From contig VGRQ01000002.1 of the NCBI GenBank assembly GCA_016875315.1, positions 1-41,915 on the forward strand: 41,915 bases of DNA, written 5' to 3'. Source of the DNA: Deltaproteobacteria bacterium (lineage in GTDB: Bacteria > Myxococcota_A > UBA796 > SXON01). The notes beneath the pieces are model-generated. The model saw only the letters and a program-made list of their open reading frames with translations. It was not told the origin of the DNA and did not search any database. Each line of letters starts with the position of its first letter. The stretch's first letter is position 1. The translations under genes and the position numbers were made by a program. Of this stretch, positions 2,143 through 27,737 are shown in pieces.

Positions 2143-2149
2143 CCCCCCC

Positions 2150-3580
2150 ATGGCGCTCGCCATTCTCGCCTCGCTCGCCCTCGCCGAGTCCTCGGCCACC
2201 TCCTTCGCCACCGACGCGGGCGACTGGGAGGGCGGGAGCCTCGGCGACGGGGTGCTCGTCGTGACCGAGAGCACCACGCTCGCCCTCGACCAGATGGCCA
2301 GCTTCACGCTCACCGCGCGGGTGCGCCTCGCCGACGGCGACGGCTTCTCGCTCCTGGCGGGCGAGTCGGTCTTCGACGCCGACTACACCGGCGCCGAGCG
2401 CCTCTCCCTCGACAGCGACACCGCCCCCTTCCCCGCCTCGGAGCTCGACTTCGACGCCGAGAGCACGGTGGCCGACAACCTCGCCGACCCCGACCTCGCA
2501 CGCCTCGGCGACGAGCTCTTGCTCTGTGGCACCCGCGACGGCGGCCTCGTGCTCTCGCGCGACCCGGGCGCCGACTTCGACGACTTCGCCTCGATCGTCG
2601 CCAACGCCGCCGAGCCCGACCTGCTCGTGGGCACCGAGTTGCACGTGTACTTCAGCCGCGACGGGGCGATTCACCGCGCCACCTCGGCCGACGGCGAGAG
2701 CTTCAGCGAGGACGGCGAGGTGCTGGCCCCCGGGGCGGACTTCGACTCCACCGGACTCGGCTCGCCCAGTGTCGTGATCGACGACGCGGGCACTTACCAC
2801 CTGTACTACAGCGTCCCCGCCACCGGCGCCTCCGGCTACGCCACCAGCGCCGACGGCCTCGCCTTCACCCGGATGGGCGAGCTGAGCGCCGGGAGCGACC
2901 GCCTCTGGCTGGCCGATGTCAGCTACGACAACGGCACCTTCTCGGCGCTCTACTCGATGGGCGACAGCCTCGGCCTCGCACTCGGCGGCACCGATCCCAC
3001 GCTGGCCGACGACGACACCGACATTCGCCCGCTGGTCGAGGCCGACCAGGCCTCGTGGGCCGACGATGGTTTCGGCGCCCCCACGCTCCTGTTCGACAAC
3101 GACGCCCTCTACACCTACGTGGCCGCCACCGACGAGGGCGAGGCGGTGATCGGCGAGATCGAGGGCGAGCCCGAGCCCGGCACCTGGGTGACACTCGTGC
3201 TCGACTGGGACGGCAGCAACCTTGTTGCGCGGTGGAACGACGTCGAGCTGGCCTCGTCCGCCACCGGCATCGAGTCCTTCACCTTCACCGTCGATGGTTC
3301 GCTCGAGATCGACGAGGTGGAGGTGGAGTACACCACCATTTCTGACACCGGCGTGATCGACACCGGCATCCTGGACACCGAGGACAGTGGTTTGAACGAC
3401 GACACCGGCACCCCCACCGCCCTCGACAGCGCCGACACCGGCGCCGCCTTCCCCGGCTACAACGCCGGCGAGTGGCTCGGCGACCCCGGCGGCTGCGGCT
3501 GCAACAGCACCGCGCCCAGCCCGGCGGTCTTCTCCCTCGGCTGGCTCCTCCTCCTCCGCCGCGTCCGGGGCGGCAAGTGA
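2150..3580 (+). CDS. Secreted acidic protein with beta-propeller/LamG-like regions and a MYXO-CTERM-type C-terminal sorting tail
   Basis: Short signal peptide MALAILASLALAES. Repeated motifs of the type ..G.YHLYYS.. / ..LHVYFSRDG... C-terminus GDPGGCGCNSTAPSPAVFSLGWLLLLRRVRGGK (GCGC, hydrophobic stretch, basic cluster). Confidence 0.75.
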   Translation: MALAILASLALAESSATSFATDAGDWEGGSLGDGVLVVTESTTLALDQMASFTLTARVRLADGDGFSLLAGESVFDADYTGAERLSLDSDTAPFPASELDFDAESTVADNLADPDLARLGDELLLCGTRDGGLVLSRDPGADFDDFASIVANAAEPDLLVGTELHVYFSRDGAIHRATSADGESFSEDGEVLAPGADFDSTGLGSPSVVIDDAGTYHLYYSVPATGASGYATSADGLAFTRMGELSAGSDRLWLADVSYDNGTFSALYSMGDSLGLALGGTDPTLADDDTDIRPLVEADQASWADDGFGAPTLLFDNDALYTYVAATDEGEAVIGEIEGEPEPGTWVTLVLDWDGSNLVARWNDVELASSATGIESFTFTVDGSLEIDEVEVEYTTISDTGVIDTGILDTEDSGLNDDTGTPTALDSADTGAAFPGYNAGEWLGDPGGCGCNSTAPSPAVFSLGWLLLLRRVRGGK

Positions 3581-3611: not shown

Positions 3612-6600
3612 ATGCTAATCTTCCTCGCCACGCGCTCGCTCGCCGCCACCCTGGAAGTGGGCACCGATTTCGCCACGATCCAGGACGCGATCGACGCCGC
3701 CGCCGACGGCGACACCATCCACGTGCCCGCCGGCACCTGGCCCGAGGCCATCGACATCACCGGCAAGTCGATCACCGTGCTCGGCGACGGCGCCGGGGTC
3801 ACCATCCTCTCCCCGGGCACTGGCGACGACGTCGTCACCATGTCGTCGTTGCGCGCCGCCACGCTCGCCGACCTCACGATCGCGCCCGCGGGCGGACGCG
3901 GGGTCGCGGTCACCGACGGGCAGCTCGCGCTCGAGTCGGTCGTCATCGACGGGGCTGGCAGCGCCAGCACCCGCGGCGGCGCCCTCTACGTCGACGGGGG
4001 CGATCTCTCGCTCAGCGACGTGATCGTCACCGGCTCGACCGCCGCCTACGGCGCGCACCTCTACGCCACCGGCGGCGCCACGGTCTCGGCCCAGAGCCTC
4101 GACCTCACCGCCGGCACCGCTGCCTACGGCGGCGCCATCTACGCCGACGACGGCTCCACCCTCGAGCTGGTCGACGTGGTGGCCTCGGCCCCCTACGCCA
4201 GCGCCCACGGCGGCTTCGCCTACCTCGACGGCGCCGACCTCGTGGCCACCGACCTCGTCGTCGACGCGCCGAGTGGCAAGAACAGCTACGGCGCCGGCTT
4301 CTACCTGTCCGGTCACGCCAGCGCCGACATCCAGAGCGCCACCATCTCCGACGCGAGCATCGCCAGCGCCGCGTCGGGCTACAGCGGCGGCGCCTTCTAC
4401 GTCCGCGATGGCTCCAGCCTCGCGCTCTCCGAGTCTACCCTCCGCGACAACGCCGCCTACCAGGGCGGCGCCATCGCGCTCTGGGAGGCGTCGTCGGCCA
4501 CGCTCGCGTCGGTGCGCTTCGACACCAACAGCGCCAGCGCCGAGGGCGGCGCCATCTACGCGGCCGACGGCTCCACCGTCGACATGGAGAACTGCGCCTT
4601 CGACCAGAACAGCGGCAGCGACGGCGGCGCGGTGTACCTCGGCGACAGCACCACGCTGCTCGACGCCGACGGCAGCTACACCGACAACGACGCCAGCCAG
4701 AGCGGCGGCGCGCTCTTCGTGGATGCGAGCGCCGAGGCGAGCTTCGACGGCAGCGCCTTCAGCTCCAACGCGGCGTCCGACCACGGTGGCGCGATCTACG
4801 CCGACGGCGACCTCGAGATCGAGGAAGCGAGCCTCGGCACCAACCGCGCCCGGCGCGGCCACGGCGGCGCCCTCTACGCCGAGGCCGACACCGAGATCGA
4901 GGCCACCGACTTCAGCGACAACAGCGCCGACCTCGGCAGCGGTGGCGCGATCTACGCCGAGGGCGACCTCGAGGCGAACGACTGTCGTTTTACCGGCAAC
5001 GAGGCCGACGAGGACGGCGGCGCGATCTACGCCGAGGACGGTGCGCTGTCGGTGTGGGAAGGCAGCTTCTTCGACAACCTCGCCGGCGCCTACGGCGGCG
5101 CCATCGCCGCCAGCGAGCCGGGCGACGTGACCCTCGCCCGGTCGTACCTGCACGGCAACGCGGCGAAGGACGGCGGCGCCATCGCGCTCCGCGAGGTCGA
5201 TACCGCCGCCACCCTGTCCAACCTGCGCGTGACCGACAACGTGGCCTCGGGCAATGGCGGCGGCCTCTACCTCGATGGCACGACAGAGCTGGAGATCCTC
5301 AACAACACTCTGGCCGGCAACGACGCCAGCCGCGACGGGGGCCACCTCTACACCACCGGCCCGCTGTCGCTGGTCAACAACATCTTCTACCGGGCGGTCG
5401 ACGGCGGCGGCGCCTACGGCACCAGCGCCTCCACCGACCGCTACTACAACCTCGCCTACGACAACGCGGGCGGCGACTGGTTGGGCTGGGACGACCCCAC
5501 CGGCACCAGCGGCAACCTCAGCACCGACCCGATGCTCGTGGCCTACACCGCAGACGGTTCCCGGGCCGACGACGACCTCTTCCTCGCCGAGGGATCTCCC
5601 TGCATCGACGCCGGTCACCCCTCGATCTTCGACCTCGATGGCACGGTGTCCGACATCGGCGCCTTCGGCGGGCCCGACGCCGACGTGGCCGACGACGACG
5701 GCGACGGCTTCTACGACAACGTGGACTGCGACGACGGCGACCCCGCGATCAACCCCTCGGAGTCCGACATCCCCTACGACGGCCTCGACAACGACTGCGA
5801 CGGCGCCGACCTCGTCGACGTCGACGGCGACGGCTACGCGGCGAGCATCAGCGGCGGCGAGGACTGCGACGACGACGACCCGGCGGTGAAGCCCGGCGCC
5901 ATCGAGACCTACTACGACGGCATCGACCAGGACTGCGACGGCGGCTCCGACTACGACAAGGACGGCGACCACCACGACGCCGACTTCATCGACGGCGGCG
6001 ACGACTGCGACGACGAGGACAACACCGTCCACGGCGCCGCCCAGGAACGCTGGTACGACGGCATCGACCAGGACTGCGACGACCGCGACGACTTCGACCG
6101 CGACAAGGACGGCTACACCTCCGCTGACTACGGCGGCGACGACTGCGACGACTTCAACGCCGACCGTTACCCCGGCCACACCGAGTGGCCCTACGACGGC
6201 ATCGACCAGGACTGCGACAACAACGACCTGGTCGACGTGGACGGCGACGGCTGGATTGCCGAGGAGGCCGGAGGCACCGACTGTAACGACGCCCAGTCCA
6301 CGGTGTACCCCGGCGCCGAGGAAGACCCGGTGGACGGCTTCGACACCGACTGCGACGGCTACTCCGAGTGGGACCGCGACGGCGACGGCTACGACGCCAC
6401 CGACTACGGCGGCGGCGACTGCGACGACTTCGACGCCGCGATCAACCCCGGCGTGTCCGAGGCCTGGTACGACGGCATCGACCAGGACTGCGACGGCCGC
6501 GACGACGACCAGGACGGCGACGGCTACCCGCTGGCGCAGGACTGCGACGACGAAGACCCGGGAACGAACCCCGGCGCCATGGAGAAGATCGACGGCCAGG

Positions 6601-7073: not shown

Positions 7074-8530
7074 TCCTCCTCGCCACCCTCGCCCACGCCC
7101 TCGACGCCCACGGTTTCGAGCTCTTCGGCACCACCGGCGACCCCGCCGCCTTCTCGCGCCTCGGCACCGCCTTCGCCGGCCGCAGCGGCTCCTGGGACAC
7201 GCTGATGGCCTTCGACTACGCCGACCGCCCGCTCTCCGAGGTGATGCCCTGGGGACGCGAGCCGGTGTTGTCGTCGCTCGGCACCGTCCAGTTCGCCGGC
7301 GGCTACTCCTTCGGCGGCCTCCGGCTCGACGCCGCCCTGCCCGTCCACGCCTTCGGCGAAGACCTGTCCGGTTCCTTCACGTCACTCGGCGACCTGCGCG
7401 CCGGGGTGCTCGTCCCCGCGCTGCGCGGGAAGGGCTGGATGCCCCAGGTCGCCCTGCAAGGCAACCTCTGGGCCCCCACCGGCGACGAGAGTCACTACGT
7501 GGGCAGCGCCGGGCCGCGCGCCGGGCTCCTCGCCCTGGCCGAGGTGCACCAGGGCAACATCGACATCCTCGGCATGGCCGGCCTCCAGGCCAGCTTCCCC
7601 GAGGAGGCCCGCAACCTCGACACCGGACTCGGGCCACTGGTGGGCCTCGGCGTCGGCTACAGCTGGAACGACGCGATCACCACGCAGGTGGAGTTCAGCT
7701 CCCAGTCCGACGTGGTGTCGGAGAGCTGGCCCCTGGAGGCGATGGTGTCCGGTCGGTACCGCCTGCCCCAGGGGGCCTTCGCCTCAGTCGGCGCGGCGGC
7801 CGGCCTCAACGACGGCGTGGGCGCGGCCTCGTGGCGCGCTTTCCTCTCGGTGGGCTGGACCTACACCCGGCCCGCGCCCCCGGCGCCTCCGCCCGAGATC
7901 GATCCCAACCTGGACACCGACGGCGATGGTTTCCCCGACATCGTCGACCAGTGCGACGACATGCCCGAGACCGTCGACGGCTTCGCCGACGACGACGGCT
8001 GTCCCGAGTTCGACGGCGACCAGGACGGCGTGGAGTTCGCGCGCGACGCCTGCCCGCGCGAGCCCATCCACCCCGAGCAAGACCCGCGCTACTCCGACGG
8101 CTGCCCGAAGGTGGCCGAGTGGGCAGGCGATCGCATCGTCATCACCGAGGCCATCTTCTTCCGCGAGGGCCGCGCCGAGCTGTTGCCCAGCGCCACGCCG
8201 GTGCTGGAGGCGGTGCGCGACGTGATGGTGTCACACCCGGAGATCGCCTACTTCCTCGTGGAAGGGCACACCAACACCAACGGCCCCGACGCCTACAACC
8301 TGCGCCTGTCCGACGCCCGTGCCTACGCGGTGATGGACTGGCTGGTGGGCCACGGCGTGGAGCCGAAGCGCCTCCTCTCGAAGGGTTTCGGCGAGACCCG
8401 CCTGCTCGTCCCGGAAACCGACCCGGACGCCGAGGCCATCAACCGCCGCGTGGAATTCCGCGTGGCGGCGGTGGAAGACCTGCCGGTGGATGCCCGGCAG
8501 GTGGTGGTGCCGGAGGATGTGCGGCGCTGA
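7070..8530 (+). CDS. OmpA-family outer-membrane protein with TSP3-like linker repeats
   Basis: C-terminal OmpA_C motifs: ITEAIFFREGRAELLPSATPVLEAV, FLVEGHTNTNGPDAYNLRLSDARAYAVMDWL, GFGETRLLVPE and NRRVEFRV. The linker reads TDGDGFPDIVDQCDD..DDDGCPE. The GTG start overlaps the upstream stop (GTGA). Confidence 0.85.
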   Translation: MILLATLAHALDAHGFELFGTTGDPAAFSRLGTAFAGRSGSWDTLMAFDYADRPLSEVMPWGREPVLSSLGTVQFAGGYSFGGLRLDAALPVHAFGEDLSGSFTSLGDLRAGVLVPALRGKGWMPQVALQGNLWAPTGDESHYVGSAGPRAGLLALAEVHQGNIDILGMAGLQASFPEEARNLDTGLGPLVGLGVGYSWNDAITTQVEFSSQSDVVSESWPLEAMVSGRYRLPQGAFASVGAAAGLNDGVGAASWRAFLSVGWTYTRPAPPAPPPEIDPNLDTDGDGFPDIVDQCDDMPETVDGFADDDGCPEFDGDQDGVEFARDACPREPIHPEQDPRYSDGCPKVAEWAGDRIVITEAIFFREGRAELLPSATPVLEAVRDVMVSHPEIAYFLVEGHTNTNGPDAYNLRLSDARAYAVMDWLVGHGVEPKRLLSKGFGETRLLVPETDPDAEAINRRVEFRVAAVEDLPVDARQVVVPEDVRR

Positions 8531-8539
8531 CGTGGATGG

Positions 8540-9400
8540 CTATCCTGGCGGCGGCGGCGGCGGCGGGCCGATAGGAGGAGAGCTGCCGCCCGGCGGCGGC
8601 TCACCGGGAGGGGGCGGCGGCGACGGCGGCTCACCCGGCTCCGGTTGGTTCCCGAACGCGGGGGGAGGCGTGGCGCCGGGGGCGTAGAACCCTGGGTCGA
8701 GCGGCGGCTCCGGCTCGCCGTCGATGAACTGCGGGAAGCGGAACTCCAGTTCCGGGGCGTCGGCGTTGAACCAGGTGGAGGGGAGCGGGGGGTTGATTTC
8801 GAGGCGCTGGACGTTCAGCGTTCGCCATCGCTTGGGGGCGTAGAAGTACTGGATGTGGTACAAACGACCGTTGGGCATCATCTCCAGGAACAGGTGACCG
8901 GGGAGCGAGGGGAGGCCCTGCGTCACGGGCGGCACGATCTCGCATTGACGGGGAGAATCGAGGAGCCCCAGGTCGTAGTACTCGGGGTCGCGAGCATTCC
9001 AGCGCAGGTCCGGGCTCCGGAACGCCTGCACGGCGGCCTGCACGGCCTGCACGGACTCGGGCCAGTGGGGCCAGGGGTTGGGTTGCCACCGGGGATCATC
9101 CGCTGATGTGGAGGAGATGCGTCGGGTCGCATCCCGCGTGACACCGCCTGCCGTCCAGGAGAAGCGTACACTCTGCCCCTCCACATCGACGACGACCGCG
9201 CCATCGGCCCGCACCGTGACCACGTAGCGGTCGGTGAAGTGACCACCCGCGTTCACTTCTGGATCGTAGATCCACGCTCGAAGGGTATCAAAGGATCGAA
9301 GCGCCTGCTTCAGTTCCTCCGCGCCGGTCGGGAGAGCGGCCTCGGAGGCCACCACCGTGTCGGCGGTCGTGCACGCCATCGCCATCAGGAGGGTCATCAT
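8540..9400 (-). CDS. Hypothetical lipoprotein with a proline-rich C-terminal tail
   Basis: N-terminus MMTLLMAMAC (lipobox-like). The tail is PPSPPPPPGEPPPGGSSPPIGPPPPPPPG. It starts 3 nt after the stop of the upstream giant gene, so the two are probably co-transcribed. Confidence 0.65.
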   Translation of the reverse strand: MMTLLMAMACTTADTVVASEAALPTGAEELKQALRSFDTLRAWIYDPEVNAGGHFTDRYVVTVRADGAVVVDVEGQSVRFSWTAGGVTRDATRRISSTSADDPRWQPNPWPHWPESVQAVQAAVQAFRSPDLRWNARDPEYYDLGLLDSPRQCEIVPPVTQGLPSLPGHLFLEMMPNGRLYHIQYFYAPKRWRTLNVQRLEINPPLPSTWFNADAPELEFRFPQFIDGEPEPPLDPGFYAPGATPPPAFGNQPEPGEPPSPPPPPGEPPPGGSSPPIGPPPPPPPG

Positions 9401-9403
9401 GGT

Positions 9404-12400
9404 TCACCATCCATCGCAGTTGTTGTCTGGGTCGGAAAGCGCGAGTGGCGCGGCTGCCGGGTTGTAGGAGGCATCCGAATCGTCGCAATCGGCACGCGCC
9501 GGCCAGCCATCGCCGTCGGCGTCGCCCCCGCACTCCGTGTCGCTCGGGTCGGCGCACACGAGGAAGCGACGATACGGCGACGCAGACGCCACGTCTCCGA
9601 ACCCGGCCGTGGGCATCCACCCGGGCAGCAGGTTGTCGTTGGCGAGCAGCTGCACCCGGGCTGGAAACGGATCGGCGGCGACGGCCGGATCGAGGGTGAG
9701 CGTGATGTCCACGCTGGCGGCAGAGAGCGCGTTCGGAATCGTGGTGGGGGCGCCCGCCTCGCAGCCTTCGAAGGGCGCGACGCCGGCAGTGCCATAGGCA
9801 CCGCAGTACACGAAGTAGGGAACGTTCGAGAAGCTCGGCGCGTCGATCAAACAGCCATTGGCCGTGCTGAGCTGCACCAACTGTACCTGGTCCACTGTGA
9901 GCAGGGCATCGACAGGTTCACAGGCGCCGGTGTCGAGGCAGGCGGAGGTGTCGGCCTCGGCCCGGGTCACGGCCAGGAGAGGTGTACCCTCACGATTGCC
10001 CCGCACCCACTCGGTGTAGAACGTGGGTTCTGCAAGCCAGGTGCTGATCAACTCGTCCACCGTGGCGGCCGAGCGGTTGTCGGTTCGCTCGAAGAACGCG
10101 ACGAGGTTGGCCCAGAAGCCGGGCTCGCTGCCGCCGTGCGCCCGGTAGGTCCAGTACAGTTGCATGAGGGAATAGGGCCCGAACATGTAGGCAACGCTGT
10201 CGTCGGCGCCGTCTAGCTCCATATCGTCGGCCGAGTTGGCGCAGGTGGCGGTCGCGAGCGCCAGCGCGGCGTCGTAGGGCTCATCCTGTCCCTCCGCACC
10301 ATAGGAGGAGAACACCGGCTGGTCGCCGAGGCGCATCCACGTCAACAACGTGGGCACGCCCTCCACCACCCACCTGGCGCCCGCGTCGTAGGGCGGCTGC
10401 GGCTGCACCCGGAACGCCGTCGCCTGGTGGGCAATCTCGTGTAGCGCGGTGGCCCGCGCATAGTAGAGGGGCACGCCGTCGGCATGCGCGGCCCAGGTCA
10501 CGGTGAGGCCGGGGAATGCCTCCCCGTTGGCCGAGTCGCCGACCGCCGGGTCGGTCCACGCCACCTCCTCGGCGGCGCTGCGCGCCAGCACGAGCACGTT
10601 CACCGGCGAGCCTGGCAGCGCGGCCACGGTGGCCTCCAGCCAGTCGAGGTCGGCCTGCGCCGTGCCGTCGTCGAGGAAGTCGGCGTACGCAGACGCCGGC
10701 CGGTCGATGGCCGGGTCGATCCACACCGGGAGCGAGGACGCCGACGCCGACGTTAGCGTGGTGATCCGCGAGAGCCCCTCGGCAGCGATGAGCAGCGGCA
10801 TGTGCGTGTGCGACTCGCTGCCACGCTCCAGGTTGGCGAGCCCGGAGAAGGTGGTGAGCGCCGTGTCGGGCGCGCCCGGCGCCACGCCCTGCCAACCGGC
10901 GGGGAGCGTGAAGGTGGTGGTGGGCGCGAGGTCGGTCGCCGTGCCGAGGCTGCCGGGGACGACGGGGACTGCGGCGAGGATGACCACGTCGGTGCGCTCG
11001 TCGTCCGGCGTGGCGGTGTCGTCGCCGCCCGTCTGGTAGCGACACAGCGAGGCGTCCTTTCGCTTGTTCTCGACGCAATCGGTGAACCCTCCCTCCTCCA
11101 CCGGCAAGCTCTCCCACTCCACCGCCACCTGCACGTCCATCCCCTCCGTGACGATCCTCGGCAGTCGCGCGTACACGGTCGTGAAGCCGTCGCCTGTGGG
11201 CACCTGGTAGTGCGGCTCGATCGTGTAGCTCGCCCCCGTGTCTGGGTACGTCACCACCACCTGTAGCGTGGCGATCTCGGTGGCACTCTCCGTCGCCACC
11301 AGGAAGATCGCGTCCTCCGCGAAGCACTCGCTCCCCGACGCGCACGCCACGCTGAACGCATAGGATCCGCCCACCCTCCAGGTGCTCCCGTCGTGCCCAA
11401 GGGTGGCGTTCACCGCGTGGGCGGTGAGGGTGCTTCCGGAGAGGGTGCCCTCGGTGCGCTCGAGGTTCTGGTCGCCGGCCAGCGGGTCGGCCGCGTAGGT
11501 GTACACGATATCGTCGGTCCCGCCGCCAAACAGGAACGCGGTGCGCGTGACCGGGTCGTACGCGGCGGCGCCGCCGGACACCCCACCCCACGGCTCGGAG
11601 GGCGCCCAGAGCGTGCGCGCGCCGGCCGAGGTGTCCCAGGCCGAGATGTCGGACAGCTCTCCCCAGGGGTCCTCGCCGCCCCACACCAGCACCTGCTCGT
11701 CGCCGAACCAGGTCGCGGCCGCGTAGATCCGCTGTCCGATGTCGCCCTGCCCGTCCCAGGTGCCCGCGCCCGCATCGTACACGGCCACGTTGTCCCAGCC
11801 GTCAACCAGCCCGGCGGTCGCCGAGCTGTAGGCTCGGTCGCCCTCGATCCAGTCCGAGCTCGCCTGCATGCAGAAGTTGCAGATGTCGCCGGGTGCACCA
11901 TCCGCGAACTCGCAGCGGAGCTGGTGCTGGCGCCCCCTGCCGAGATCCTGGTGCAGCGTGCCGCCGACTTGCACGAGGGAGCCGGTGCCCGAGAACGCGT
12001 GGCTGGAGAAGCTCCACCAGGGGCCGGTGACGGCGCCGGCCGCGCCGCGCCGCCCGTGGGTGCTGTCGGGGGGCACCGCAGTGCCGGCGCTGGCGCTCTC
12101 GGGGTAGCCGTCAAGGCTGGCCGCGCTCCCGTCTACCACGATGAGCGGGTCGGCCGAGGCCGTCGCGAGGTGCTCGTCGGCATCGTCGTCGAGCCCGGCC
12201 ACGACGGACCACGCCGAGCAGTCGCCCTCGCAGCCAGTGGTGCCCCCGGCGATGAGAACGTCTCCGGAGTTGGGGTCGAGACCCAGGGCGAACTCGGCCA
12301 GGCCGGCCACGTTCGCGCTGTCATAGGCCCCCGTCTCCGCGCTGCCGCCGCTCAGGCAGATGGGGTCCTCCGCGCAGGCGGGCTGGTAGTAGTCGTTGTC

Positions 12401-13117
12401 CATTTCAGTGCCATCGCAGCGGAGCGTGGCAAGGCACGGGTTGGCGCTCGCGAAGGTTTTCACGTTGGAGAGGTAGAATGTACCCGAGCTACAGAGGTCG
12501 TCGTCGCAGTCTTCATCGTGCTCGAAGATGCCCTCGCCCAGGCACTCGCCCAGGCGACCGGCCATGGCGGAGGAGTAGGCACAGGGCACCTGCCGGAAGG
12601 AACTGTTGCAGTCGAGCGAGGGCCAGTAGCCCGCGTTGCTCGGCGTCGTGTCGCCGAGGTCGCTGGCGGCGTACTCGATGCTCGGCAGGGTGGTGAGGCT
12701 CGACCAGCCCAGTCCCGACGCCAGGTCGCCCGGCTCGGCCGACCACACGCCGTCACTCGCGGCCGTGGCGGCCGCCTCGTCGAGGTAGCCGGGCGCGAAC
12801 ACGAAGCGCTCGCGGGTGGGGTCCCATGCTAGCCCACCCGAGAAGCTAGCGATCCCCGAGTTGCCGAGCGAGATCCACGGGCAGGCCCCCGTCCCGAGGT
12901 GCGTGAGGTCCAGGAGCCATTCGTCGTCGAGCACCGCGCCGCTGCTCTCGTCCACGCCGCCGTGCAACAGCACGCCCCTCTGCACCCATCGCTCGCTCCC
13001 GCCGCTGCCGAAGTCCACCGGGGACTCGACGAAGAACCACGCCATCGAGTGGTAGCGGCGAGGTTCCGGCACGGCCGACCCGCAGGCCGCCGCGTCGGCG
13101 CTCAGGTTACCGACCAC
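9404..13117 (-). CDS. Giant secreted Kelch-like / HExxH metallopeptidase-like / MopE-repeat protein (main reading frame; its natural N-terminus appears to be the out-of-frame segment 13107-13220)
   Basis: Kelch-like units (RRYHSMAWF...LLHGG...DDEWLLDL; VLVWGG...ISAWD). HExxH motif in ATALHEIAHQA. C-terminal CGGDADGDGWPARADCDDSDASYNPAA...DNNCDGW. As drawn, the frame begins MVGNLSADAAAC and has no signal peptide. Confidence 0.8.
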   Translation of the reverse strand: MVGNLSADAAACGSAVPEPRRYHSMAWFFVESPVDFGSGGSERWVQRGVLLHGGVDESSGAVLDDEWLLDLTHLGTGACPWISLGNSGIASFSGGLAWDPTRERFVFAPGYLDEAAATAASDGVWSAEPGDLASGLGWSSLTTLPSIEYAASDLGDTTPSNAGYWPSLDCNSSFRQVPCAYSSAMAGRLGECLGEGIFEHDEDCDDDLCSSGTFYLSNVKTFASANPCLATLRCDGTEMDNDYYQPACAEDPICLSGGSAETGAYDSANVAGLAEFALGLDPNSGDVLIAGGTTGCEGDCSAWSVVAGLDDDADEHLATASADPLIVVDGSAASLDGYPESASAGTAVPPDSTHGRRGAAGAVTGPWWSFSSHAFSGTGSLVQVGGTLHQDLGRGRQHQLRCEFADGAPGDICNFCMQASSDWIEGDRAYSSATAGLVDGWDNVAVYDAGAGTWDGQGDIGQRIYAAATWFGDEQVLVWGGEDPWGELSDISAWDTSAGARTLWAPSEPWGGVSGGAAAYDPVTRTAFLFGGGTDDIVYTYAADPLAGDQNLERTEGTLSGSTLTAHAVNATLGHDGSTWRVGGSYAFSVACASGSECFAEDAIFLVATESATEIATLQVVVTYPDTGASYTIEPHYQVPTGDGFTTVYARLPRIVTEGMDVQVAVEWESLPVEEGGFTDCVENKRKDASLCRYQTGGDDTATPDDERTDVVILAAVPVVPGSLGTATDLAPTTTFTLPAGWQGVAPGAPDTALTTFSGLANLERGSESHTHMPLLIAAEGLSRITTLTSASASSLPVWIDPAIDRPASAYADFLDDGTAQADLDWLEATVAALPGSPVNVLVLARSAAEEVAWTDPAVGDSANGEAFPGLTVTWAAHADGVPLYYARATALHEIAHQATAFRVQPQPPYDAGARWVVEGVPTLLTWMRLGDQPVFSSYGAEGQDEPYDAALALATATCANSADDMELDGADDSVAYMFGPYSLMQLYWTYRAHGGSEPGFWANLVAFFERTDNRSAATVDELISTWLAEPTFYTEWVRGNREGTPLLAVTRAEADTSACLDTGACEPVDALLTVDQVQLVQLSTANGCLIDAPSFSNVPYFVYCGAYGTAGVAPFEGCEAGAPTTIPNALSAASVDITLTLDPAVAADPFPARVQLLANDNLLPGWMPTAGFGDVASASPYRRFLVCADPSDTECGGDADGDGWPARADCDDSDASYNPAAAPLALSDPDNNCDGW

Positions 13118-13220
13118 GCCTCCCGAGGAACCAGCCGGGGGGGGGGGATGATCCAGTATCTACGCCGTCTTTTCCGTCTACGCCGGTACAAGCATCGAGC
13201 AGCAGCAGCCCGAAGAGCAT
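13107..13220 (-). CDS. Orphan 5' segment encoding a lipoprotein signal peptide (MLFGLLLLDAC...), separated from the giant ORF by a frameshift in a C11 tract
   Basis: SD AGGAGG lies 4 nt upstream of the ATG at 13220. Translation is MLFGLLLLDACTGVDGKDGVDTGSSPPPGWFLGRRGR*. Deleting one C from the tract fuses it to ...PPPAGSSGGVVGNLSADAAAC of the 9404-13117 frame. Confidence 0.7.
   Translation of the reverse strand: MLFGLLLLDACTGVDGKDGVDTGSSPPPGWFLGRRGR
13137..13147. repeat. Homopolymer G11 (C11 on the coding strand)
   Basis: Counted directly: ccagcc + 11 g + atg. It is one of only two runs of 8 nt or longer that I found in the window. Confidence 0.95.
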
Positions 13221-13317
13221 CACGCCTCCTGCGCCGTGGAGTGTAATCCACGGCACCGGGCGCCTGTCAAGTGCCAGGCCGGGAGGACGCGCCGAGCGCC
13301 CTCCCGCCCGGGCTTCC

Positions 13318-14868
<1,551 letters not shown>

Positions 14869-25703: not shown

Positions 25704-25734
25704 CCCGCGCGAGGCCGAGCTGCCGAGGAATCGC

Positions 25735-25803
25735 AAATGTCAAGAAAATGTCAATTGCCCCCCCCCCCGGGGATTGACGGACCGTCGCGACGCGCAGTAC
25801 TCT
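25735..25803 (+). promoter_or_regulatory. AT-rich promoter region: AAATGTCAA x2 (11-bp register), C11 tract, then TTGACG-18 nt-TACTCT
   Basis: aaatgtcaagaaaatgtcaattg + c11 + ggggattgacgg ...(18 nt)... tactct. AAGGAG SD lies 7 nt before the ATG at 25829. TCAAT/ATTGA inverted arms flank the tract. Confidence 0.45.
25758..25768. repeat. Homopolymer C11 immediately upstream of the putative -35 box
   Basis: Counted directly (tcaattg + 11 c + gggg). Confidence 0.95.
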
Positions 25804-25828
25804 CACGTCGCGACCAAGGAGTCTCGTC

Positions 25829-26353
25829 ATGAAGAACTGGACAGGAATGAACGTGTTCCAGTGGGAACACTCTCGGCGGTGGGATCTCGCCCCCGGTGCC
25901 AACGAGTTCGTGCGAGCCGAGGGCGCGCTGATGCTCCCCGGCTTCGTCACCCTCAGCGTGTTCTTCCGCCGCGCCTCGCAGACCGCGAGCACCGTCGAGC
26001 TGGCGCTGTGGACGGCCCCGCTCTACACTCGCCCCCTCGACGAGGACAACTTCACCAACAACCCCGGCCAGTACCTCTTGCCGCTCACCCTCCAGCCGGC
26101 CACCGGCCTGCAGATGACGGGCACCGGCGCGCAGGTGTTCGGCGCCCGCCTCCAGCCGGAGCAGGCGGTGGGGTCGCTGATCTTCTGGCAGCTCAAGAAC
26201 ACCGGAGGCGCCCAGTCGGTGATCGTGGGCGACATCTACGTGGTGCCCAACCACGCGGGGAGCATGATGCTCACCGACGTCCGCCGGACGATCGACGCGG
26301 GCAGCGGGCCGAGTCACGGCAACCTGGCCCGCGCCTCGTTGCGGCAGGGGTAG
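25829..26353 (+). CDS. Hypothetical protein (174 aa), first gene of the cassette
   Basis: Strong SD (AAGGAG) and good GC3. No signal peptide. No family recognised by eye. Confidence 0.6.
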   Translation: MKNWTGMNVFQWEHSRRWDLAPGANEFVRAEGALMLPGFVTLSVFFRRASQTASTVELALWTAPLYTRPLDEDNFTNNPGQYLLPLTLQPATGLQMTGTGAQVFGARLQPEQAVGSLIFWQLKNTGGAQSVIVGDIYVVPNHAGSMMLTDVRRTIDAGSGPSHGNLARASLRQG

Positions 26354-26792: not shown

Positions 26793-27737
26793 ATGAGTGT
26801 CACACTTCGGATGCGGCATTGGTACCTTGTGGACGAGCGGGATCAACACCCCTGGGCCGACGCCGGCGTGGGTGACGGGTGGATGCTCGACCCGCTAGCA
26901 CAACTCCCAACACCCGAGGAGAGAATAGCGAAATACCATCAGCAGGCCGCCGACATCTGGTCCGCACAGGGAATCCGGCTCGTCGTGGCTAGCGTGCTTC
27001 CATTCCCGTTCCCCACGCTGGACGTGTCGGCGGAAGATGAACAGTGCCTTGGCAGTTGGCTCTGGCGACGGGACCAGCAGCACATCGATGTCTTCTGGGT
27101 CGGATCTCGAGGCAGCACCGGCACAGGGCTCGGGGTGGCCCTGCTCTCTCGCTACGAGTTCAGCGAGGCCGGCAGCCAGAGAGCTCCTGACGGAACGCTG
27201 ACTGAGATCGCTGCGGGATGGCGCGAGCAGTGTGCGCTCGTGGTGGCCAGTGGCCGAAATCCTGCGCTCGCGGGAAAATACCACGTACCGGCAACAGAAC
27301 TGTGCGGGATTGTGCTGGCTCACGAGCTGGGCCACCTCCTTGGACTACCCCACGTGCTGTCTTCCGGTGAAGGAGACGAGGAGTTTCAAGCGGCGGCCCT
27401 CGACCCGTTCCCGAACGACATCCCAACCGCGGGCACGCGAGCCGAAGACCTGAACGTGATGACGTACTGGTCCGTGGCCCACGCCCCAGATTTGGGCGAG
27501 GGGGAGCCAACGCCCGAGCAGATTAGGGTCACGCGTTCCCAACGATTGCGCTCGCTGGCTACAACTGCACGCCGAACGAACTTCTACTTCCACGTGAGCA
27601 CGCTGAGCGAAATCATCGAAGCGACGAATCGGAGCACCGGACACGCGGAAGTCGTTGCCGAGGTGAGGTCACTCGGGTTCCACAACCCGACTTTTACTCC
27701 CTGCTTCCTCGCGGAGCTCTATGCCGCTGTTGGGTGA
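26793..27737 (+). CDS. Cytoplasmic metzincin-like zinc metalloprotease (HExxHxxGxxH)
   Basis: IVLAHELGHLLGLPH is the extended metzincin zinc-binding motif, and a candidate Met-turn (NVMTYW) lies 38 residues after its last His. There is no signal peptide. GC and GC3 are visibly lower, with rare codons (AGA, ATA, AGG, CTA, TTG). Confidence 0.7.
   Translation: MSVTLRMRHWYLVDERDQHPWADAGVGDGWMLDPLAQLPTPEERIAKYHQQAADIWSAQGIRLVVASVLPFPFPTLDVSAEDEQCLGSWLWRRDQQHIDVFWVGSRGSTGTGLGVALLSRYEFSEAGSQRAPDGTLTEIAAGWREQCALVVASGRNPALAGKYHVPATELCGIVLAHELGHLLGLPHVLSSGEGDEEFQAAALDPFPNDIPTAGTRAEDLNVMTYWSVAHAPDLGEGEPTPEQIRVTRSQRLRSLATTARRTNFYFHVSTLSEIIEATNRSTGHAEVVAEVRSLGFHNPTFTPCFLAELYAAVG

Follow-up and report, generated by a model that had tools for sequence, protein, structure and literature searches.

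A poly-C tract at the signal-peptide boundary of a giant surface lipoprotein gene, a probable phase-variation locus in a high-GC deltaproteobacterium

The textbook examples of contingency loci built on simple repeats come from host-adapted pathogens (Neisseria, Haemophilus, Campylobacter, Helicobacter and Bordetella), and in the neisserial pilC genes the poly-G tract lies in the signal-peptide coding region. The cut-off for a phase-variable G tract in Neisseria is at least 9 nucleotides (nt), with nalP carrying C(9-13) and pilC G(9-20) (PMC5953494). Here we analysed a stretch of 41,915 nt (the window; contig VGRQ01000002.1 of assembly GCA_016875315.1, Deltaproteobacteria bacterium) whose minus strand carries a run of 11 cytosines (C11) between the start of a lipoprotein gene and the open reading frame (ORF) of 1237 codons that encodes its mature part. 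This C11 is probably a genuine, selected, hypermutable homopolymer which makes the gene a slipped-strand translational phase-variation (contingency) locus.

The window gene and its homologues resemble pilC1/pilC2 and NalP, where a G/C run of 9-20 nt near the 5' end of the coding sequence for a surface protein turns translation ON or OFF by 1-nt changes and many sequenced alleles are OFF, and the tract lengths of the family (8-14 nt) are within the range treated as phase-variable in Neisseria (PMC5953494). NalP, with its poly-C inside the ORF, is also comparable as a protease-type surface lipoprotein. However, there is no sequence or fold relationship with these neisserial proteins; the carriers are not host-restricted pathogens but uncultured, free-living 'Deltaproteobacteria' of about 70% guanine plus cytosine (GC) content; and the family tract follows the lipobox Cys, in the tether, with poly-C (Pro) and poly-G (Gly) versions alternating. 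The leader-peptide codon repeats of Neisseria Opa (CTCTT pentamer) and of Helicobacter pylori OipA, HopZ and SabA (CT repeats) are matched by a CGCACGC heptamer in one family gene (P0005), although the repeat unit in this family is mono- or heptanucleotide, the proteins and organisms are unrelated, and the window gene itself uses a homopolymer. The transcriptional promoter poly-C of Bordetella fim resembles a second C11 of the window, which has putative activator sites on one side and a -35-like hexamer of another operon on the other, whereas the main tract is proposed to act translationally. The 7C tract of Mycobacterium tuberculosis glpK shares with this family a reversible frameshift ON/OFF in a conserved gene of a high-GC genome, but glpK encodes a cytoplasmic metabolic enzyme and its tract is short and mid-gene, whereas the family tracts are longer, conserved and placed at the signal-peptide boundary. 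The mechanism is already known; the protein family and its ecological setting are new. Searches of the full-text literature yielded hardly any report of phase variation at homopolymers in uncultured bacteria living free in the environment. The carriers of this family are high-GC 'Deltaproteobacteria' metagenome-assembled genomes (MAGs), including at least one recovered from the freshwater plankton of Lake Biwa.

The anatomy of the locus, all on the minus strand, was established by direct reading and translation. The Shine-Dalgarno (SD) sequence AGGAGG (13225-13230), identical in an ortholog of 81% identity, is followed after 4 nt (cgtg) by the ATG (13220-13218) of a leader ORF (13107-13220) that encodes the signal peptide with the lipobox Cys (codon 13190-13188), then the first part of the tether and, in the OFF configuration present in the window, a 9-codon out-of-frame tail closed by TAA (13109-13107); the leader product is MLFGLLLLDACTGVDGKDGVDTGSSPPPGWFLGRRGR, followed by this stop. 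The C11 proposed as the switch (13137-13147, G11 on the plus strand) is an uninterrupted run near the 5' end of the coding sequence, 24 codons downstream of the ATG, and holds three leader Pro codons. The region coding for the mature protein (9404-13136) continues in the +1 frame relative to the ATG at 13220; it is called as a 1237-amino-acid (aa) ORF starting at a GTG (9404-13117) without export signal, and its frame is closed by a TAG (13162-13160) 4 codons ahead of the tract. The statements of the original prediction on the sequence of these elements were all confirmed, as was its statement that a C10 tract fuses both parts: removing one C gives an uninterrupted product of 1271 aa reading through DTGSSPPPAGSSGGVVGNLS. 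Full length is likewise reached with C13 (1272 aa), whereas C11 gives a 37-aa leader plus an ORF lacking the export signal. The gene, again with C11 and with unchanged flanks, is also present in a separate Logan assembly, that of SRR7985589. An exact-protein look-up matched the Met-start version of the window protein (P0046) and gave no match for the Val-start version (P0001); since the look-up found the gene in one run only, the two assemblies most likely derive from the same read set.

The homologues of this gene form a small family, for which a word-indexed search of 5.8 billion proteins gave 3 matches and an exhaustive phmmer search against 1.84 billion representatives about 39 clusters; a profile search with the N-terminal alignment returned a single protein, its candidate list being probably swamped by low-complexity words. 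The alignment shows a constant architecture: a short lipoprotein signal peptide with Cys as its last residue; a tether of 20-45 residues and low complexity; and a conserved domain with the pattern C-x-x-x-P-x-x-R-x-(F/Y)-H-x-M-A-W-F-F. The fused N-terminus of the window protein is homologous to the in-frame N-termini of its relatives. Tracts and frames were read at the DNA level in 10 distinct family genes; in eight of them the same short linker contains 8-14 consecutive G or C, and the homopolymer, where present, always lies between the lipobox Cys and the MAWFF domain. Five of these genes are OFF: the window gene (C11, needing a +1 shift); its 81% ortholog in the MAG F1-120-MAGs226 (C10 then TCC, needing -1), identical in the four contigs retrieved (one ENA assembly, the NCBI MAG contig and two Logan runs); a paralog in the F1-120 MAG (G8, right after MLHLIALYAC-SGV); the P0042 gene, a 77% ortholog of P0007 (G11); and the P0011 gene (C11, OFF in 4 samples). 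The Lake Biwa LBMAG42 gene (C14), a 284-aa short paralog (G11) and the P0007 gene (G10) are ON. The remaining two genes are ON and have no homopolymer: P0037, whose Gly6 is written in mixed codons (ggc ggt ggt ggc ggt gga), and P0005, with its heptanucleotide repeat in the signal-peptide codons, which brings the genes with a slippage-prone 5' repeat to 9/10. Frame relations 0, +1 and -1 are all found within the family, and a +1 shift (a tract one base too long) is needed in 4/5 of the out-of-frame genes. The original prediction had left the choice between a phase-variable tract and an indel error; the comparison of orthologs, with a tract in the same place, varied lengths and frames, and a length that differs between samples, favours the former. 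The combination named there as refuting, no homopolymer in orthologs together with an invariant length, was not observed: eight of the ten genes have the tract, and its length varies in the family.

The variation between samples was approached by taking alleles with differing N-termini from 90%-identity clusters and comparing them as DNA. For three family genes, repeat length is the sole difference between near-identical alleles of separate samples: in the short paralog it is G11 (ON) in one metagenome and G12 (OFF) in ERZ27257034 and SRR8894379; the LBMAG42 gene has C14 in the MAG and C13 (OFF) in DRR333386, where the lipobox is canonical (MLVLALLAAC); and the CGCACGC heptamer of P0005/P0050, in the n-region codons of the signal peptide (locus L022, 2503-2535; locus L026), is present in 4.7 vs 7.7 copies, a difference of 21 nt which keeps both alleles in frame, with flanks otherwise 100% identical. 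Three of the ten distinct homopolymer alleles are ON and seven OFF, as would result if the tract length drifts.

Because the tract disrupts or displaces the reading frame, public gene calls in the family (P0007, P0011, P0052, P0054 and P0049) often begin at the conserved internal Met (MAWFF...) or else out of frame (MATKIRAETT..., MLELRGVDAG...), the false 'MATKIRAETT' start being the one picked by the gene caller, in another frame, for the G12 alleles of the short paralog. Database proteins starting with 'MAWFF' were initially taken as OFF alleles, a criterion that was rejected when the DNA of P0007 proved to be in frame with its signal peptide. In this exceptional gene the caller merely overlooked the signal peptide, and protein N-termini alone are therefore unreliable. 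The family is a warning for annotation, as gene callers shorten such genes or assign false N-termini.

Several lines of evidence indicate that selection preserves the repeat in a gene whose ORF is kept intact. The only homopolymers of 8-11 nt in the window (70.5% GC) are two of 11 nt; dinucleotide shuffles predict 0.14 C11/G11 matches, and two were reached in 1/100 shuffles. In 140.6 kb of non-redundant related loci there are 12 G/C runs of at least 8 nt, 8/12 of them inside the linkers of the family genes, which at about 150 nt each make up 1.07% of this sequence (binomial P ~8e-14). The tract is not a by-product of codon usage, because other Pro and Gly runs avoid homopolymers: the Pro7 run of a neighbouring gene is encoded by six CCG and one CCA, Gly runs use GGC, and GGG accounts for only 14% of the Gly codons. 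Poly-C (Pro) and poly-G (Gly) versions alternate in the family, and one paralog has its tract on the opposite side of a conserved KDTG motif, which suggests that selection acts on the DNA repeat and not on the amino acids. Comparison of the main ORF with the 81% ortholog over 1237 codons gave zero indels, no stop, a synonymous divergence (dS) of 0.68, a nonsynonymous divergence (dN) of 0.12 and a dN/dS of 0.18, indicating that it is under purifying selection; the promoter region, 5'-untranslated region (5'-UTR) and leader are 94% nucleotide-identical, compared to 80% for the main ORF.

In the mechanism we propose, slipped-strand mispairing during replication would shift the tract length in 1-nt steps, presumably at high rates, joining or separating the SD, ATG and signal peptide and the mature protein of about 1,240 residues through the tether codons that follow the lipobox Cys; the tether suits a length-variable tract, because one Pro or Gly more or less is tolerated after this Cys. 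With C10 or C13 (ON) the signal peptide would deliver a surface- or periplasm-exposed lipoprotein to the envelope; with C11 (OFF, the state of the window) ribosomes would halt after 37 codons and the Cys-rich body would not be exported. No start codon of the main frame is followed by an export signal, and OFF would therefore be a true null for the exported protein. The OFF state would also lower the expression of an abutting partner lipoprotein gene by lost translational coupling and polarity. As to the benefit, the switch may hedge bets on a surface protein that is costly or vulnerable, such as one used as a phage receptor. A whole family of giant surface-lipoprotein operons would then be equipped with switches, with ON and OFF alleles coexisting in public metagenomes, and the tract could serve as a marker by which bet-hedging in natural plankton is counted from reads, for instance where phages or grazers put a surface protease under pressure.

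Phase variation has to be weighed against a sequencing or assembly error, in which the true tract is C10 and an intact gene only appears split. Indel miscalls classically arise in homopolymers of at least 10 nt, and a change of a single base recovers the 1271-aa ORF. A one-base miscall of the window tract itself is possible; as the full explanation, error is unlikely, and we rate an intact C10 gene in the window as very improbable. The second assembly (SRR7985589, Logan) also has C11; five other family genes or alleles are out of frame, one of them at a G8 that short reads resolve easily; the frame differs (+1 vs -1) between close orthologs; and even with a miscall here, the family-wide tract and the departure from codon usage would mark a selected hypermutable site. 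The relatives come from Illumina-based assemblies, as documented for the LBMAGs, which were sequenced on MiSeq and assembled with metaSPAdes (10.1101/655167). The following points nevertheless weigh against phase variation: all tract lengths are consensus values of assemblies; homopolymer calls of at least 10 nt are error-prone even on Illumina, and some ON/OFF states could be off by one; a single allele (C11) of the window gene is known, from two assemblies; its signal peptide, MLFGLLLLDAC, is non-canonical, with no K/R and an Asp at lipobox position -2 (LLDAC); and the consensus length is constant for two other genes, one with C10 in four assemblies (two of them Logan runs) and one with C11 in each of four samples, these identical lengths across runs indicating that switching in both is too slow to alter the consensus.

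The out-of-frame alleles could also be read through by programmed recoding, the full-length protein arising from OFF DNA by RNA-polymerase slippage or by +1 frameshifting on CCC_CCC_CCC_CC (involving tRNA-Pro and sensitive to EF-P/m1G37), with tract length tuning expression. CCC-N and GGG-N codons are +1 slippery sites, a +1 shift is what 4/5 of the out-of-frame genes need, and the out-of-frame consensus is found in several samples with the ORF still under purifying selection. We regard this explanation as improbable: conserved recoding sites hold one fixed relation, whereas the orthologs show 0, +1 and -1, with in-frame alleles for the same genes, and because the frame relation is not conserved, programmed frameshifting of fixed direction is disfavoured; 4/5 is not significantly different from 50:50; and transcriptional slippage is documented mainly on A/T runs. 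No Rfam family was found in positions 12800-13500, which include a hairpin upstream of the SD, and the RNA of the leader region folds no better than shuffles (z +1.45), leaving a frameshift-stimulating structure or a riboswitch unsupported. Low-level leakiness may coexist with phase variation, and a combined reading, which we hold with low confidence, is that OFF alleles such as C11 still give some full-length lipoprotein through +1 slippage of tRNA-Pro/tRNA-Gly or RNA-polymerase stuttering. With similarly low confidence, tract length and translational state (EF-P, tRNA m1G37) might jointly set the level of the surface-protease operon; such a rheostat would account for the dominance of out-of-frame alleles in nature despite strong purifying selection on the ORF. 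A decaying pseudogene, with a fixed, inactivating frameshift and an incidental tract, would fit a gene that is out of frame both here and in its closest relative, and was rejected as extremely improbable given the dN/dS of 0.18 at a dS of 0.68, the ORF free of other indels or stops over 3.7 kb in either lineage, and the 5' region with the leader, better conserved than the ORF; moreover, the two lineages are broken at the same tract in different frames, and in-frame alleles are present in the family. Slipped-strand phase variation thus remains the explanation we prefer.

From its sequence the product is described as a lipoprotein in which a Kelch-like propeller and an M1-like gluzincin domain are combined with a MopE-like motif at the C-terminus. 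The Kelch-like beta-rich region occupies the N-terminal part of the main ORF and was assigned by family profile and Pfam matches; the gluzincin motif HEIAHQ...E (10441-10361, minus strand) and the Cys-rich MopE-like motif (9490-9407, minus strand) were identified by translation, and HEIAHQ-x20-E does not vary among family members. At the family level, the description by Kelch, HExxH and MopE in the original prediction holds; the window protein by itself gave only MopE in Pfam (PF11617, E=0.0097, below the gathering score), with no Kelch and no Peptidase_M1 match. Pfam on 20 family members gave Kelch_4 in 15/20 (3e-10), MopE in 6/20 (7.6e-7) and Peptidase_M1 in 1/20. A 20-member family profile matched, in the PDB, the putative zinc metalloprotease 6a8z (E=1e-6, aligned across '...HELAHQW...WLSEG', the match spanning the beta-domain and the catalytic helices, with HExxH followed 21 residues on by WxxEG), ERAP1 and aminopeptidase N (~4e-4), Methylococcus MopE 2vov (E=3e-4) and Kelch proteins (4e-3 and weaker). 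HExxH with a downstream WxxEG is shared with the M1/gluzincin peptidases (6a8z, ERAP1, aminopeptidase N); unlike these, the family has the extra Kelch-like and MopE-like modules and the lipoprotein anchor, and the GxMEN exopeptidase motif, a mark of true M1 aminopeptidases beside HExxH and a Glu ligand 18-25 residues further on, was not seen by eye, for which reason the domain is called only M1-like. These assignments come from profile searches and not from a structure model, the AlphaFold2 model of the 1200-aa ORF (7-sequence alignment) having a mean pLDDT (predicted confidence) of 39.7, too poor for a fold search.

The original prediction gave the window gene a lipoprotein signal peptide; the lipobox of this copy does not conform to the reference pattern ([LVI][ASTVI][GAS]C after a basic n-region). 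The lipoboxes of the relatives are canonical: MNRTAPLLVALLVGC, MRWTLPLLVAC, MGRLVFLFMLSC, ...LLAAC and ...ALSGC. Several signal peptides of 10-11 residues without a basic residue occur in this lineage: MMTLLMAMAC (window 9371-9400), MLFGLLLLDAC (window 13188-13220), MLHLIALYAC (locus L007, 5952-5981) and MLFLLLHLSAC (locus L014, ~2417-2450). In the LBMAG42 contig (locus L005, ~10025-10030) the lipobox Cys codon reads TGG (Trp, MLVLAVLGAW), whereas the more than 90% identical DRR333386 allele (locus L025) has TGC (LLAAC); the TGG is either a strain variant or a consensus error.

The downstream Pro-rich lipoprotein gene (8540-9400, minus strand) was found as described beforehand: its ATG at 9400 lies 3 nt past the TGA of the main ORF (9406-9404), and it encodes 286 aa with a Pro-rich C-terminus. 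Partner homologues of 255-297 aa follow the family gene at 3-15 nt in every relative with a complete downstream gene, the short paralog included. Judging from this arrangement, the partner is probably translationally coupled to the main ORF and co-silenced in the OFF state. In locus L007 the partner gene has an in-frame C8 (10425-10432; GAC CCC CCC CTG) encoding a conserved DPPLP motif, and in locus L016 a C8 (4185-4192) lies inside the partner gene (3866-4255); the window partner has NPPLP at the position of this motif and no run of at least 7 nt. Between the partner gene and an OmpA-family gene, the ortholog locus (L001, 7897-9594) carries a 291-aa gene and a PhdYeFM/ParE toxin-antitoxin pair, and the window (8530-8540) is without them; toxin-antitoxin pairs flank other family loci too (PIN/RHH in L017 and L022).

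Upstream of the main gene, directly 5' of the SD, the centroid structure shows a hairpin/palindrome of 10 base pairs, GUGCCGUGGA-UUACAC-UCCACGGCGC (13231-13256, minus strand), conserved in the 81% ortholog with a single stem substitution, C-G to U-G wobble, that preserves pairing; it could be an operator or a 5'-UTR element. A TTGACA (13270-13265, minus strand) resembles a -35 hexamer; a strict scan for sigma-70 promoters gave no match.

The second C11 of the window (25758-25768, plus strand) had been counted as another such case affecting a secreted putative protease. Unlike the first tract, it is intergenic and promoter-proximal, and splits no ORF. Its context (25720-25831) consists of a direct repeat, AATGTCAA-GA-AAATGTCAA, AT-rich within 70% GC, followed by promoter-like hexamers (TTGACG...TACTCT), the tract lying between the AATGTCAA direct repeat and the -35-like TTGACG, upstream of a gene starting at the ATG 25829. 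This gene has a GC content at third codon positions of 0.94, and the next gene (26793-27737) has a metzincin-like motif, HELGHLLGLPH. The second C11 is a candidate transcriptional phase-variation or spacing tract, related in kind to the first and forming a separate locus.

Other repeats were observed in the window and the related loci. A C7 (window 2143-2149) directly precedes, at the expected SD position, the ATG of a gene whose product starts with the signal-peptide-like MALAILASLALAESSATS. An intergenic T12 is located in the 70% GC genome of locus L001 (105-116), near a MarR/methyltransferase gene upstream of ahcY. The P0037 locus (L015) has a G9 (210-218) about 100 nt upstream of the start, in a divergent intergenic region. 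Locus L009, from an unrelated Deltaproteobacteria MAG, encodes a MopE-repeat lipoprotein starting with MRYLLPLLALSFFAC with an in-frame C8 about 20 codons past the lipobox Cys, and contains repeated intergenic elements carrying G9 runs (positions of this C8/G9 set: 3295-3302, 2315-2454 and 8734-8742).

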